From the NCBI RefSeq assembly GCF_964213995.1, contig NW_027590274.1:1-64000 (forward strand): 64,000 bases of DNA, read 5' to 3'. The notes under the pieces are model-generated. The model worked only from the letters and a program-made list of their open reading frames with translations, was not told the DNA's origin and ran no database searches. The position numbers and the translations under genes are program-made. Positions within the stretch are counted from its first letter, which is position 1. Each line of letters opens with the position of its first letter. This document shows positions 23,649 to 32,958 of the stretch, in pieces. Source of the stretch: Mustelus asterias. Lineage: Eukaryota.

Positions 23649-24689
23649 CTGCAGGGGTTGGATTCTGCTGTTTTTGCTGCTGTTCAGTATTGACAGTCTG
23701 ACAATATTTTATTTCTGTTGATGTTAACAAACCCTATAACTCGCTGAAATTTAATATTCTGGAAATGTCACTGATTTTCGGGGCTGCAATGTCCCTTTTC
23801 AAAAGCAACACCTGTGATCTTCCCTCTTAACTGAAGAACTCTCAACAGGAACCTGTTGAGAATAAAATTAAGAACTTTTGCTTCAATTCTAATTTGATCT
23901 TTGGGGCAAAATCTACAATTCATTCTCTGAAAGATCCATCTGCAGGGCTCAAAGTATTTATTTTCAATGCTTGCATTGAGATTTTCTGGAAAGGTACTCT
24001 TTGATTTTTAAGGGCTATTTTTTTGTTTCCAGGGTATCGTTTTCCATTCTCAGTAACTCCTTTATTAGTGATGTAGTCACGTAGTAACATTACCTTTTGT
24101 GTTTCTGTTAGTTTACTTCTTTGAATAAGATAACACAAATACTGAAGACTGTGTATATATTAAATCTTTTAAATTGGAATCTATGAATGATATTTTTTGT
24201 TAACTTATTTTAAAAATACTCCCATACTCTCTTTCCAAAATGAGAATTCTAACTATTTGACACAAGGTAACTGAATCAGATGTTTACTGGTTCAGACGGT
24301 GGAGCAGGAAAAATCTCTCCCGATTCTGATCTTCATTGTGTGTGGATTTACATTGATAACCCATCAATAACCTCACTACACCAGCTGAGATCAGCTCTGA
24401 CCGGGGATTCTGTATGTTGTCTGTGAGCGTTAAACTGCAAATAAAAGCAGTTTAGAATATGAACCTGGATGAATGGATCTCAATTTCTAATGTGACGACC
24501 CAAGTGATTGGTAAGTATGTTCACAATATCTGGTTACTCAAATTCCTGAGCTGTACACCCCACCTACTGAGATATATAAAAATAATCAAGACTTGTTCAG
24601 CAGAATGGGGAAAGCTCTGCCGATGGTTGGATCATTCCTTTTGAGGCTCACACTGCTATGAAACTAGTTCTGTAGCAGGAAGACACAAC

Positions 24690-24988
24690 TCCTCCACACG
24701 TCACTGATAGGCTGCTGAGTCTTTTCTCAAAATAGGTGGCAAAGCTGTTCCTCCAGTTTGAGACTCTGTCTCTGCAGATGCAGCAACATCGGGAGAGACA
24801 GAATCTGTGATTGGAAGAGATGGTCCTCACAGTTTCTGTCTCTCCCATGTACAGGATGATTTATTTCTTCCAGTAGTTCCTCCCATGACAGAATATCCAC
24901 GGTCCTTCTGAGGGTGAATTCACCCTCCACAGCCATGTATTTTGAATCCTGGTTCTGAAATATTCTCACTCTGGGTTTAAGGCTTCCT
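24690..24988 (-). pseudogene. Possible decayed V-type Ig-superfamily exon
   Basis: An acceptor tatgccag is followed by fragments VRIFQ...FTLR, NYWKK, HRFCLSR, LHLQRQSLKLEE and FATYF in V-domain order across frameshifts. Confidence 0.3.
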
Positions 24989-26104
24989 GGCATAATACAC
25001 AGATTTAGATCTTACCACCGAACACCAATTCATATCGTCATCTGAGTTCCAGATTTAAATGTGGTTGTCCAAACCAGAAACTATATATAATTTGACTCTT
25101 TTTAAACTTGATTCACCACACCCTGCCACACTAACTACAAGAGATTGTGTTTGGAACCAGTTGTTCCATTGAAGTCTGTGTTGTTCTCAATGATGACAGT
25201 TTTAACCTTCTCCATAACCTGTCCTAACCCTTCCGCCCTCCAGGGGGCTCTGTTTTTCTGATGGTGACATTCCCTGTTTACCCAGTCAGCCCTTGAATTG
25301 TTTGTGAATCCAGTCACATGTCAGTTAGACTGGATCAGGCGGCAGATTTCCTTCCTTAAAGGGCATTAGAGAACCAGATGTGTTTTTACAATAATTGATT
25401 CATGTTGCATCAATATTTTTATTGAAACGTGTGGGATTCAAACCCAGGTCCCAAAATCATTATAATAAAAACAGAAAATGCTGGATAAACTCAGCAGGTC
25501 AGTTTTATTCACAATTCCAACATCTGCAGGATTTTGCTTTATCCCAAAATCATTACCCGGGATTATCCTCCAGCTCTAATTCCAGTTCCAGAATCCCACA
25601 ACTCTCTGTATTTCCCAGGAGGGGGGTGGGGGGGAAGAAAGTGTTTTTCTCATAAATGTTGGCCAGAGGAGGAAGTTTGAGACTCTGTGTGAAGCTAAAA
25701 ACAAAAGGTGTGCTGTTTCAAATCAAACTGCAGGACTTGGAGGAAAATATTGGAATCTATCATTAAGGAAGTGATAACAATGCAATTAGAAAATTAGAAC
25801 ATGATTGGACAAAGTCAACATTGGTTTATGAATGAATTTGACAAATCCAGTAGAATTTGTTGAGGATGTAACTAACAGGTTAGATAAAGGGGAACCAGAG
25901 AATATTGCATTGATTGAATTTCTAAAAGCCATTTGATAAGGTGCCATACACAAGGTTGTTGCACAGGATAAGGGCTTGTGTCACTGGAGTTGTTAAAGGA
26001 CAAAGAGAAGGGATTGATGTGTCATTTTCAGTTCGGCAGGCTCTTATAATGGGGACAGCGCAAGAAGCAGGACAGGAGTTTATTAACAATCCATGTTCAT
26101 GACT

Positions 26105-26585
26105 TATTTCAAGAGACCAAGTCCAATGTGTTGAAGTTTCCCGATGGGAGACTGTCTCGGGGCAAACAGCATCAAGGTGGTCAATACAAATGACACACGG
26201 ACCCCGTAAAATATATCCTCACAAACTTCTGCACTGCGGACCACCTCTCTGGGGAAAACACTGTGGCGACCGGCAGATATGGAGGCAGCACTGACATTTT
26301 GTTCAGTTTCAAGGACCATCATCACCAAACTCTCAACATCCGAGGTATCCAGAGGAAGATCAGAAGTGGAGCGGTGGCAGAGCAAGACCAGAGGTGGAGC
26401 AGCAGCAGAGGAAGACCAGAGGTAGGGTGGAGCCACAGAGCTCCTCCCATTCCCCTTGAGCACTAACAACAACATCATGAACTGCCAGTTCTGTGGATGT
26501 CCATGTCGATCCCACATCAGACTCTCCCATCAGGAGAGGATCCACAGAAAACAACAAAATCATTGACAGCTTGGACATACTTAAA
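26105..26585 (+). mobile_element. RTE-clade LINE 3' fragment
   Basis: GRYGG...FKDHHHQTL and the C-terminal knuckle CQFCGCPCRSHIRLSHQERIH. Confidence 0.6.
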
Positions 26586-26842
26586 CCATGAGGAGTCTAC
26601 CCCAACGTTTTCCCTGTTCTCTGGATGGGGTAACTATACTCTGTCTGTATTGTTGCAGTGCTATTAATACAGTCAGCAAAAGACAATCTGTTGTTGGGAG
26701 TTTGATTAGCTGGTGTCTGAAACCACAAGATTCAATATTTAGAGTCAACAAGATGAAAAAGGAAACACACCAGGGCCCAATACTCCAGCTAGATATTCAC
26801 GGGAGAAGTCATCGAGTGGGCAGAACAGAGAAAAATCCCAAC

Positions 26843-27410
26843 TTAGTTAGGCGGCACTTGGAATATAGTGTTCAATTCTGGTCACCACACTACCAGAAGG
26901 ATGTGGAGGCTTTGGAGAGGGTACAGAAAAGATTTACCAGGATGTTGCCTGGTATGGAGGGCATGAGGTATGAGGAGAGGGTGGAGAAACTTGGTTTGTT
27001 CTTACCGGAGCGACGGAGATTGAGGGGAGACCTGATAGAAGTCTACAAGATTATGAGATGCATGGACAGAGTGGATAGTCAGAAGCTTTTTCCCAGGGTG
27101 GAACAGTCAATTACTAGGGGGCATAGGTTTAAGGTGCGAGGGGCAAGGTTTAAAGGAGATGTACGAGTCAGATTTTTTACACAGAGAGTGGTGGCTTCCT
27201 GGAACTCGTTGCCAGGGGAGGTAGTGGAAGCAGATACAGTAGTGACTGTTAAGGGGTGTCTTGACAAGTGCATGAATGAGATGGGAATTGAGGGATATGG
27301 TCCTCGGAAGGATAGGGAGTTTTAGTTAAGTCGGGCAGCATGGTCGGTGCAGCCTTGGAGGGCCGAAGGGCCTGTTCCTGTGCTGTAATTTTCTTTGTTC
27401 TTTGTTGTTT
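26843..27410 (+). mobile_element. CR1 (HER1-like) LINE 3' fragment
   Basis: LVRRHLEYSVQFWSPHY...; tail ttctttgttctttg. Confidence 0.9.
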
Positions 27411-28897
27411 GTAAGAAACCCTCCAATCATTTGTGAATATCTTTCAAATGCTAACAGGTTGCATCTCCCAGTTTCCATTATACTGAATCAATGGAGAGCG
27501 GTTTTCCTGGAACTACTAAAAACACTAGCTAGATCACAGCTGGAGTACTCAGCACCATTCTAGTTAGGGGGTGGTTAGCCAGAGAGTGTGGCTCAGAAGG
27601 TCCTAGATCCTTAACAGAGATGTCAAGAACTAAGGGGCAGAGAGGTAAAGCAATTGGCAGAAGGATTAGAGAAGTGTGGAGAAGTTTTCACCCAGAGGGT
27701 GGTGGGGAATCAAACTGACTCTCTGAAAGGGTGGTGGAGACAGAAATGTTCACATGCAAGAGGTATTCAGATATGGACTTGACATGCTGTGTCCTATAGG
27801 GTCATAACCTATACCTGGAAAGTGGGACTAAACTGGATAGCTCATTTTCTCCTGGTACAGGCATGATGGGCTGAATGGCATCCTGTGCAGTAAATTTCTC
27901 AGATTCTGTGATGACAAGTGATCCTCATGATTTTATTCAAGCCAGGTCTCAGCCCAGTCATTTACTCTAAGTATTGATGTGATGGTTCAGTCACATTGTG
28001 CAAACGAGCTGCTGTGATACAGTAATAACTAGAGGATTTTCACAGTAACTTCACTGCATTGTTAATGTAAGCCTATTTGTGACTAATAAACTCTAACTTA
28101 ACTTGTATTTATAGGAACAGAATAGGTAAATTTCAGCCCTTAGAGCCTGCTCCGCGATTCAGTCAGATCATGGCTGATCTCTCCCTGGTCTCAAGTCAAC
28201 CTCCCCACTTGTTCCCCATATCTTCCATCCCTTTTTGTGTCAGAAATATATCTATCTCCTCCTTGAAACCATTCAACGATTCAGACTCCACCACGCTGTG
28301 AGGCAGCGAGTTCCACAAATTTACCACTCTTGGAAAACTTCCCCCTTACATCTCTTTTAAACTTTCCCCCTCTCACTTTCAATTGTGGATCTTTCAGAGT
28401 GTGAGGTGAATGATAATCAGTACACTACAGACACACGTCACGGTCAGCATCTCAAAGGGACTGCAGAGTATTTCAAACTGTGTCGTCATGCTGTAGTTCG
28501 TGACCTTGATTTGCAGAGATAGAATTCGGACTGGATATTTTGGAATGTTGGAGAGACATTGATCTAACAATAGAATCGTGAAATAACAGCTCATGAGGAG
28601 ACACATCATGTCTGTGCTAGCTTATTTTCAAACAGTTATACAATTAGTCCTAATATCATTCCCTTTCATAAAAACGTGCATTATTTCTCCTTTCAAACGA
28701 TTGTTCAATTCTCTTTCTGAAAAATCTGAGTTAACAAACAACAACATCGGAAGAGTTGCAGAAGCCTCTGCAGTATTCATGGACATTTTTTAAATTAACA
28801 AAGTTTCCTTGAATCAATAGAGTCAGGTGGGAATTCTCATACAGTTTTGGAAATAAAACTATTTGCAGTAATGCAGTTGATTTCGTACCTTTTCAAG

Positions 28898-29206
28898 GAT
28901 CATAGAATTCTACAGTGCAGAAGAAGGCCATTCAGCCCATCGAGTCTGGACCGACCACAATCCCACCCACGCCCTATCTCCATAACCCCATGCATTAACC
29001 CTAGCTAGTCCCCCTGACAATTTTTAGCATGGCCAATCCACTTAACCCGCATATCTTTGGAGTGTGGGAGGAAACCAGAGCACCCGGAGGAAACCCACGC
29101 AGACATGAGAAGAATGTGCAAACTCCACACAGACAGTGACCCAAGCTGGGAATAGAACCCAGGTCCCTGGCGCTGTGAGACAGCAGTGCTAACCACTGTA
29201 CTGCCC
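28898..29206 (-). mobile_element. HE1-like SINE
   Basis: Minus-strand head gggcagtacagtggttagcactgctg and tail ttctatga. Confidence 0.85.
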
Positions 29207-29689
29207 CTCAATGTTGGTCTTGGAAATAGGGCAATGCTGACCCAGTCAGTTCTGGAATGCAAGTGGTCAGTTATCCTATTTACAGTAGCACAGCCACACC
29301 AGAAAGAGACCATTCAGATATGTTATGTGTGTAAATGGATTCTGTTCGCTCTGTCAAATTTATTCAAACTGTTTGATTCTAATTGATCTAAGGTCAAATT
29401 ACAACTGCAAAAAAGTCAATAAAAAATTTAAATTAACCTGATGTTCATTTCAAAACTCCCTTCGCCTTTTAACTATCTCTCCCTGTCTGTCTCAAATCAT
29501 GAAAACTGGGCAAAAATGTATTTTTTCTGAAAATGAGCACCTCAAATATAACAGATTCAGGGTAGTGTAATCTCCCTAACAGAGATACAGTGTCTCTGTA
29601 AGAATTGTAATTCATGATTTATTTTAATATGTAAGCACCAGTTAACATGAATAAAAGCCCAAACATCTAATTATTTTATTTTTCCGAAA

Positions 29690-31570
29690 CCTTTTTCCTT
29701 TATCCCTGCAAGAATTTTCAAACGCAGTTTTATTTTCATTTAGCCAGAAAACGTGTAACCGCTCAGTATCACAGAGTTGAAACAATACAGAAACAATTGA
29801 GAAACACCAAACCATTTCACAAATTTTGAGATGAGATTAGTAATTAATTATCTCGGTATCCAATTACAAATTACTTGGAAGGAATAATCTGATTGCGACT
29901 GCACAGAAAGAAAATGTAATAATCGGATACATAAATTGCCAAAAAGCAACGTCTTTTTCTGCAAAACTCGTATTCCAGTGAATGCGAACTTAATCTGGGA
30001 TATAACGACTAATGCAAAGTATCTTGTTGAATTGAGCGCTGCTATGGAAACAGCACGTTATCATTGAAATAGTTTCTGGAATTATCACAAAATATTTCCA
30101 GCCCAGAAACTTTTCTGGTCATTTTAATTGAACAGAACTATTAGAGGTGATTAATGAATAATGATATTAACATAAAAAAATCTTTGGTGAATATGGAGTT
30201 ATATTACCGATCAATAATTGTTTGATTTATCTTAATTTCATGATCAAATTGGTTAATGAGAAGTTTGTGATTGCAGCAATGACTTAGTGTCCAAGTGAAC
30301 TTTGTAAGTCATGATTTATTTTAATATTTAAACATTAGTTAAAATTTATAAAAATGTTGTGATATCTTGATTTCATTTTTATCCAAAACCTGCCTGTTTT
30401 CTACTACAAGGACTTTCAAACTCAGAGATTCTTTGCATTCAACCAGAAAACGTGTAACCGCTCAGTGCCGCCGAGTTTAAACAGTGCAGAAACAATGCGG
30501 AAACACCAAATCACTTCGCAAATTTTAAACTATCATAGTGACCGAACCACAGAATCTCCTGAACATAAACACTACAAAGCACATCACTGAGAGAATTATT
30601 CCGCTTCATGAAGAAGCAGCTCAATTATTCATTCAACATAATAAAATGTAACATTGCAAGAAAATCTCAATATCGAATCCAGCAAAACAGCTCGTCACCA
30701 AATGTATGAATTATTAAACAAAACAGAAATCTGGAATAATAGCAATAGCATTGTGAAGAGATAGAATATATCCAACACATTAATATGGAAACTTTACCAC
30801 ATTTTATTCATATTGGATCATATTTCAAACATATTTAAATATTTGGATGGTAAAAGCTGCAGCAATCACTGAGATTTAACATTGCAGGGTAAACAAATAG
30901 TGAATGCAGTGGCAAACTATATTCTGAACAAACTGCGTAAACTGTGGTTTAGTTTAACCTGCAATTATCAATTATGATTTTCAAAAATACCAATGGAATA
31001 AAGCCTGCCTGATTTCAGCATATAATCATGCGTAAAGCAGTTTCAGACGCGAAGACTGTTTGTATTCAATCACAAAATGTGTAACAGCTCAGTGTCACCG
31101 AGATTAAATAATGCAGAATCGCCAAACCATTTCAAAAATTTTACTTATTCAAAGTCACCCAGACCCACAATCTCCTCAACAGAAAAACATATACATCACT
31201 GAACCCCGCATAATGCAGAAGCAGCTCAATTCTACAAACACTTTCAACAGAATCAAATGTAACATTGACAGCAAATCTCAAATTTAAATCCAGCCAATCC
31301 GCTCATCATCAAACTAATCAATGATTAAATTAACAGAAATATGTCAGAACCACGCCAGCATTGCGAGTAAGCGGAATATGATCACTCAATTAATACAGAA
31401 TCTTTAACACATTTTTAAAATATTGGGTTAGATTTCAAATGCGTGTGCAGCAGATGGTACAACACGCAGCCACTAGATGTCACCGAGTTTATACACTGCA
31501 GAAACGTCGAACTGTTTAACAGAAGTTAGACAGTAACTTTTAAAGTAACCCAGCCACACAATGTCCTCAG
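29690..31570. repeat. Degenerate about 630-700-bp tandem repeat immediately downstream of JH
   Basis: AAAACGTGTAACCGCTCAGT...GAGTT...ACACCAAA...AAATTTT recurs at about 29745, 30445 and 31075, with partial copies at about 30850 and 31460. Confidence 0.7.
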
Positions 31571-31808
31571 CAGATAAACACCAAAATACAACAACCAAGG
31601 ATTGAATCCCTCAGCATCGCCTTGTCAATTAACAGGAGAATTTTATAACCCCCATTTTAAGCAGAATCACATGAAACTTTGTTAAGACTTTTAGTACAGA
31701 ATCCACCAAACCACATTTCAGTGAACGAATGAATTAATAAAATCGATCAAAAATATAAAACAAAAGCTCAAGGAAAACTTAGTTACGAAATAATTGCATG
31801 GTTCTTAC

Positions 31809-32642: not shown

Positions 32643-32958
32643 ACCCCACTGTAGTATATTGCACAGTAATAGATGGCGGTGTCTTCGGTCTTCAGCCTTG
32701 TCATGTCCAAAGAGAAGATGTTGGTTGAAGTGTCTTTGGACGCAGTAAATCGATCCTTAATTGCTGGGGCGTAGCTGTTGCTGGATGAAGTATAGTACCA
32801 CACCAGCCACTCCAACCCCTGTCCTGGAACCTGCCGGATCCAACCCATGCCATAGCTGCTAAGATCGAAGCCGCTGGTTTTACAGGTCAGTGTCAGGGAG
32901 CCTCCTGGACGCCCGGTCTCTGCCTCTGGCTGAGTCAACACAACCTCCGACTGGACAC
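32643..32958 (-). CDS. IGHV: IgM-type VH exon fused directly to a DH1-like segment (VD1)
   Basis: Acceptor tttttacag|GT. Open frame [30 protein letters not shown]...[12 protein letters not shown]...DTAIYYCA is followed by ATATACTACAGTGGGGT with no intervening RSS. Confidence 0.93.

Follow-up and report, generated by a model that had tools for sequence, protein, structure and literature searches.

Why does an immunoglobulin (Ig) heavy-chain unit whose parts are kept from promoter to splice donor stand with no constant (C) region behind it? The question is raised by a unit built from V (variable), D (diversity) and J (joining) segments in the shark Mustelus asterias, which lies in bases 1-64,000 (the window, i.e. 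the whole stretch analysed) of contig C242 (NW_027590274.1; 539,611 bp; C-numbers denote contigs throughout) of a 3.68-Gb assembly (GCF_964213995.1). The original prediction offered two answers, a recently truncated cluster or a V donor for the C region of another cluster. The former is supported, with the break now mapped to 29341/29340. The window unit is most likely a young C-less pseudogene of an IgM minicluster with V and D1 joined, left by the birth-and-death turnover described for Ig genes (PMC5192425, PMC3308330).

Anatomy of the unit and its missing constant region

The J-proximal intron of the unit has 40 scored full-length relatives (78-100% identity), which makes the unit one member of a large heavy-chain (IgH) cluster family. 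Sister clusters, to which it is 97-98% identical, carry C1-C4, a cysteine-bearing secretory tail and a membrane exon, and this layout marks the family as IgM. Matches in the PDB include mu chains among other isotypes; beside the layout and these matches, the label 'mu' is in part our assumption. Leader, V, D1, D2 and J lie within 1.4 kb with 12/23 recombination signal sequences (RSSs), as in the V-D-J part of a shark IgM minicluster, for which about 2 kb is typical. The promoter, leader, splice sites, open V, RSSs and donor of the heavy-chain J segment (JH) named in the original prediction are all present, on the minus strand. That prediction had placed the unit at 23950..31808; the JH donor at 31808 is correct, but the V side lies beyond this interval, up to 33233. 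The features read as follows.

33233-33225, minus strand: TATA-like box TATTTAAAT of a putative VH promoter, the same in sister clusters
33135-33090, minus strand: leader exon MRSAISLSLLLTFLS(G) with an intact GT donor
32958-32643, minus strand: VH exon joined to D1, with an open frame ending ...YYCAIYYSG (Pfam V-set, E 3.6e-17)
32642-32605, minus strand: 3' RSS of D1, with consensus heptamer and nonamer and a 22-bp spacer
32291-32223, minus strand: D2 (32263-32251) flanked on both sides by a 12-bp RSS; its 3' heptamer, CACAACA, is common to most subfamily siblings
31895-31809, minus strand: 23-bp RSS and JH (31856-31809, YFDYWGQGTMVTVTA), with the GT donor at 31808
31808-29341, minus strand: J-C-mu1 intron, of which the unit keeps the first 2.47 kb (a sibling has 8.46 kb), from sister comparison
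29341/29340: breakpoint at which the intron is joined to post-C flank with a 1-base (A) microhomology, from comparison with sisters and C90
29340-20793, minus strand: repeated zinc-finger flank, colinear by alignment with the region 12-16 kb behind C-mu4 of intact clusters (C90 699898-689074)
22689-23648, plus strand: convergent array of 11 tandem C2H2 zinc fingers, interrupted by an in-frame stop that follows finger 4

A functional IgM minicluster has its own C-mu exons 8-18 kb downstream of JH; the window unit has none. A tblastn comparison of sibling C-mu1-4 with the window and the next 30 kb of the contig, part of the check proposed with the original prediction, returned no C exon, the single match above the E 0.001 cut-off being a zinc-finger array. 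The C-mu2-4 queries matched all five sibling clusters tested as controls (92-100%). The membrane-exon motif, present in two of two siblings, is absent from the window. The tblastn queries were C-mu domains only; for the C domains of IgW and IgNAR the cover came from a scan of both strands for open reading frames (ORFs) with an Ig-like C-W-C pattern, which gave no C domain. By tblastn, ORF scan and membrane motif, then, no overlooked C exon came to light in the window or the adjoining 30 kb, which bears out the earlier failure to see a C-mu exon. Further, no C-mu4 was found on the whole 540-kb contig. The three N stretches in the window are each shorter than 190 bases and are therefore too short for a hidden C exon.

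The breakpoint and the V-D1 joint

From D1 to exactly 29341 the unit is 97.5-97.8% identical to eight sisters and 96.5% identical to a ninth, and the identity ends sharply there. Beyond this point the DNA is colinear, with small gaps, with the flank leading to a convergent zinc-finger gene (C90 699898 to 689074). Measured against the C90 cluster, the unit lacks 24,839 bp, a stretch that holds C-mu1-4 and the membrane exon. Five clusters (C90, C2511, C158, C140 and C143) have this flank in the same orientation at a distance of 12-16 kb behind C-mu4, which favours a deletion in cis. The original prediction saw only repeats and decayed fragments in the roughly 8 kb below JH; instead, this interval comprises 2.5 kb of authentic J-C intron followed by normal post-C flank. 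The convergent zinc-finger (ZNF) gene that it described is real, but carries the stop noted above. Its counterparts in C90 and C107 are also interrupted, at other places (stop and frameshift), and the facing gene is an ordinary neighbour of the repeated units.

Among 40 scored candidates per side of the parental breakpoints only C242 is broken at the joint, and these candidates include no reciprocal product and no leftover intron-plus-C piece at the break. No allelic twin of the locus with an intact C was found at >=99% identity over long range. Two other candidates were set aside. C444 is not the other half of the window unit, as 16 of 488 bases differ just below JH. RAG mis-targeting at cryptic RSSs is an unlikely explanation of the break, as CAC-type 7-mers stand 9-10 bases off the joint and none at it.

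The second joint in the unit is that of V to D1. In unjoined sisters V ends in TGTGCAAGAGAC and D1 follows about 440 bases further on, reading ATACTACAGTGGGGT in two of them (L049, L062). The window joint, at 32658, is TGTGCA-AT-ATACTACAGTGGGGT: V is trimmed by 5-6 bases, D1 is untrimmed, and 1-2 bases are palindromic to the D1 end. This is a RAG-type joint with P nucleotide(s) and no N region, in which the DNA between V and D1 is gone together with its RSSs. Consistently, the V-J distance is 820 bp, some 440 bp shorter than the ~1,260 of unjoined sisters. Germline P-region joints formed with little TdT activity have been described (PMC2193156), and the presence of P nucleotides with no N region suggests that RAG joined V to D1 in a germ cell, the product being then presumably inherited. 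The joint is unique in the assembly. Of the 30 loci examined, 8 are in the VD-D-J state, and among these three identical copies share one joint; further states among the clusters are VDD-J, V-DD-J, V-D-DJ, V-DDJ and VDJ. Partial or full germline joining is common in elasmobranchs, and about half of the loci are partly joined in some species (PMC5192425, PMC3308330).

Two further observations concern joining in related clusters. One fully joined, in-frame VDJ (CARHVQQWGMGYWGQG) at L124 (G000:C166:443k) has C-mu4 13.9 kb downstream and is a candidate fixed-specificity IgM. Four related clusters, L049 (C173), L109 (C87:2440k), L110 (C71:12.52M) and L111 (C91:2457k), carry a JH with a one-base insertion ahead of the WGQG codons, the frame effect of which depends on trimming in rearrangement.

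The most likely course of events for the window unit would begin with RAG joining V to D1 in a germ cell. Before or after this, a separate non-homologous end-joining event, either a deletion or an unequal exchange between two repeat units, would have brought the intron, cut 2.5 kb below JH, up against the zinc-finger flank that normally follows C-mu. The locus would probably remain able to complete VD-D-J joining in a B cell and to be transcribed, since nonfunctional rearrangements are transcribed and mutated in nurse shark B cells (PMC2435157). With no C acceptor, neither a mu chain in cis nor a pre-selection signal would be expected; the RNA would end in the intron or the flank and would encode, at most, a lone VH with a short tail. 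Reading through the JH without splicing gives GKNHAIIS-stop and AATAAA words occur in the J-proximal intron from 30808 onward, so that a short VH-only RNA is conceivable.

Age of the unit and C loss across the assembly

If the unit is dead, why does it look intact? Called against 73 sequences, some of which cover the same cluster, the window unit has 15 private positions in 3,841 (~0.4%) and 0 in the 300 bases of the V exon. A neutral simulation at 0.4%, 0.6% and 1.2% divergence left ORF, cysteines, splice sites and RSS cores all undamaged in 70%, 57% and 33% of its runs, respectively, so that the intact look requires no selection and would reflect the little time passed rather than use of the unit. 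The V exon differs at only 2 of 300 bases from that of the C91:2457k cluster, which has C-mu4 and a different joint, while the introns differ by ~3%, pointing to gene conversion of V exons among clusters. The nearest relative on the intron tree (support 0.97) has a stop in C-mu4.

The loss of C is not confined to the window. An exact 23-base JH pattern (control 0 matches) has 64 matches in the assembly, with diverged JH outside this count, and C-mu4 has 105 matches of IgM type; 53 of the latter have no exact JH, and among those C444 alone was examined. C-mu4 lies 11.7-17.9 kb downstream of JH in 52 of the 64. Four JH run to contig ends (C1007 as judged from its coordinate), leaving 60 assessable, and 8 of these have no complete C in the 27-58 kb examined (29 kb for the window unit). 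The window unit is thus one of several such broken copies in the genome, which share six breakpoints:

Window unit: J+2.5 kb
C91:2409k: J+4.0 kb
C123 and C154: J+5.0 kb
C971 and C1012: J+5.6 kb
C325: after C1
C1179: start of C2

Four of the six breakpoints are in the J-C1 intron, which makes up ~72% of the J-to-C4 span at risk; hence there is no enrichment. V has a stop at its start in C123 and C154, and some of the C-less pairs may be haplotype copies or assembly chimeras. The zinc-finger flank is not the joining partner of the other C-less units, several of which abut a non-LTR (long terminal repeat) retrotransposon that we take to be Tx1-like. Copies of this element, 97-99% identical, directly border the C971, C1012, C1179 and C444 breaks and are also present near the C325 break. 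A young element, L029:2252-8488 (G000:C145:42-48 kb), has ORF1 and a 1,304-aa endonuclease-reverse transcriptase ORF, and the family may drive the loss of Ig cluster parts.

The C444 locus is the converse case. At L112:3962 (G000:C444:177962) a V-less IgM unit has kept its intron and C-mu4, and the last 10 bases of its JH stand directly next to a copy of the retrotransposon; no V or D was found within 4 kb ahead of this JH remnant. Further, several small contigs share blocks with zero differences. C971 does not differ from C143:782k (L126) between V and J+3 kb; beginning at about J+1 kb and continuing across the C-loss break that the two have in common, it is likewise identical to C1012, while the V region of C1012 equals those of C325 and C1179 (0 of 700 bases different). 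Such mosaics are due either to assembly chimerism or to clusters having exchanged DNA very recently in the germline, within the J-C intron.

Several observations weigh against a young pseudogene that lost its C region in this way. The zinc-finger flank was found behind C-mu4 in none of the nine closest sisters (7-36 kb examined), and the C90 intron, from another subfamily, is only 82.6% identical; the loss may therefore be larger than the C90 comparison implies, or may stem from unequal exchange between two units. An open V is kept by six of the eight C-deficient units. No private change falls in the final 1,029 bases ahead of the break, the likely cause being gene conversion with C444-like copies. 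Finally, four public contig sets over 29215-31750 show loose ends of both parental forms at 29341, with no bridging piece among those listed. These sets represent at most three samples from two studies, probably of other individuals or species given their many differences to the window, and contigs drop rare variants, so that the failure to bridge is no evidence of absence. Among public sequencing runs, the best contains 0.45 of the sampled window words and none reaches half; no RNA run is among the matches listed.

The contig sets bear on an assembly misjoin, in which the true locus has a C region and the contig has fused two paralogous units. The locus lies in highly repeated DNA, 29 kb of contig follow the joint, and the zero-difference mosaics among other small contigs may themselves be chimeras. 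However, the joint has a homology of one base and no shared repeat, neither of its sides is matched elsewhere by a near-identical twin (best 97-99%), no leftover piece of intron plus C begins there, and order and strand match those of intact units. A misjoin is accordingly very unlikely.

The private changes bear on another explanation, namely that the assembly holds the chromosome of a lymphocyte, with a somatic RAG joint and a switch-like deletion made by AID. VD-D-J intermediates are common in shark thymocytes (PMC2435157), and the private changes fade towards the break, ending at 30381, which at first resembled a gradient of hypermutation. However, the V exon has no private change, tandem substitutions are absent and the spectrum is mixed; private changes also occur upstream of the promoter, the V-D1 joint has no N region, and the allele of one cell would hardly define a 540-kb contig. 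Hotspots are likewise lacking: the 500-base bins flanking the break contain 0 AGCT and 5-6 WGCW, against 8-13 WGCW near JH. On the private-change pattern and these counts, hypermutation or AID is rejected as the origin of the break, and a somatic allele is extremely unlikely. Based on the same observations, the unit also differs from a product of AID-mediated switching between clusters, which would show a VDJ joined to the C of another cluster, point and tandem hypermutation of V and hotspots at the break; here the partner is zinc-finger flank.

The second answer in the original prediction was that the unit serves as a V donor. It would be transcribed after VDJ joining, AID would break the remaining 2.5 kb of intron, and the VDJ would recombine onto the C of another cluster; alternatively, the 22-bp RSS would be used in trans with a D segment from TCR-delta (TCR, T-cell receptor). 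The unit retains four intact RSSs as well as an intact promoter box, leader, V and JH donor. V exchange onto another C and transrearrangement of IgH V to TCR-delta are both reported in sharks (PMC4279169 and PMC12227049, respectively), and shark B cells do transcribe and mutate nonfunctional rearrangements (PMC2435157). However, a donor would be expected to show conservation beyond neutral expectation or a unique V, and the window unit shows neither: its intactness is explained without selection, and its near-duplicate V (2 of 300 bases) sits in the C-bearing cluster C91:2457k. C loss recurs at scattered breakpoints, including two copies with a V stop. AGCT is absent from the 500 bases to each side of the break, and WGCW is not raised; the distal part of the intron, rich in G+C (50-60% at 5-7.5 kb), was lost together with the C region, and no C-mu4 was found on the contig. 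Further, rearrangement occurs within clusters (PMC2435157), and a B cell would presumably not be selected on such a VDJ before switching. Use as a donor is thus unlikely, although a bystander role of this kind is mechanically possible, if unsupported.

A broader form of the donor idea would regard the C-less V-intact IgM units (up to 8 of 60 JH, six with an open V) as a hidden reservoir of V(D)J donors, expressed only after switching between clusters or germline exchange in the J-C intron, and as a living intermediate between the shark cluster and the translocon with a shared C. This too is improbable. At G000:C91:2409k-2457k a C-less VDD-J unit stands tail to tail with an intact cluster 48 kb away, and this pair is the most likely place for inversion-type exchange if C-less units are ever used.

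Known systems and the probably inherited joint

The window unit is a young C-less member of the partly germline-joined IgM clusters known from sharks. It resembles elasmobranch miniclusters of this kind (PMC3308330, PMC5192425) in its L-V-D1-D2-J layout, with V joined to D1 and the remaining RSSs intact, and resembles the germline joints of PMC2193156 in having P nucleotides and no N region. Unlike these miniclusters it has no C-mu1-4, secretory tail or membrane exon, and its intron is cut at 2.47 kb. The nurse shark pseudogene clusters of Groups 6-8 and G2C (PMC2435157) are similarly dead members of an IgM minicluster family; they were compared by name rather than by lesion, and in the window unit the V side remains open. 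Switching between shark clusters (Zhu et al. 2012, via PMC4279169 and PMC5192425) also involves a break in the J-C intron that parts a VDJ from its own C, but is somatic, linked to AID and attaches another C, whereas the joint in the window attaches non-Ig flank, bears the mark of neither hotspots nor hypermutation and was most probably inherited. Finally, IgH-like V segments that stand alone and serve with TCR-delta (TAILV, IgH-TCR-delta transrearrangement; PMC12227049) share with the unit an IgH V, a free 23-type RSS and the lack of an own C. In contrast to them, the window unit keeps D2, JH and intron and is 98% identical to ordinary IgM clusters; no TCR gene was noticed next to it, although no search aimed at one was made. 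A literature search found no description of C-less shark IgM clusters, with key primary papers and supplementary tables outside its reach, so that novelty in print is not established.

The locus is thus ordinary biology, although of some use. It shows a way in which shark IgM clusters die, and implies that in this assembly counts of V or J put the number of functional clusters too high by about one in eight. Further, the presumably inherited CAIYYSG joint is unique and has no C in cis, making it a mildly useful barcode: a C-bearing transcript with this joint would prove inter-cluster switching or trans-splicing, a proof otherwise hard to obtain among 98%-identical genes.

The surroundings of the unit bear other traces of duplication and decay. 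IgM units are interleaved with a large, segmentally duplicated ZNF family, and the window contains four tandem C2H2 zinc-finger arrays, at 9.6-10.3, 11.5-12.0 and 18.4-18.9 kb (minus strand) and at 22.7-23.6 kb (plus strand). The J-proximal intron has old internal duplications common to sister clusters (29605-29827 / 30302-30526 and 30407-30829 / 31035-31439; 69-76% identity). Finally, a second VH fragment lies 11 kb upstream of the V that is intact, at 44040-43800 on the minus strand; it is decayed and 3'-truncated, contains stops and shows 54% identity across 69 aa.

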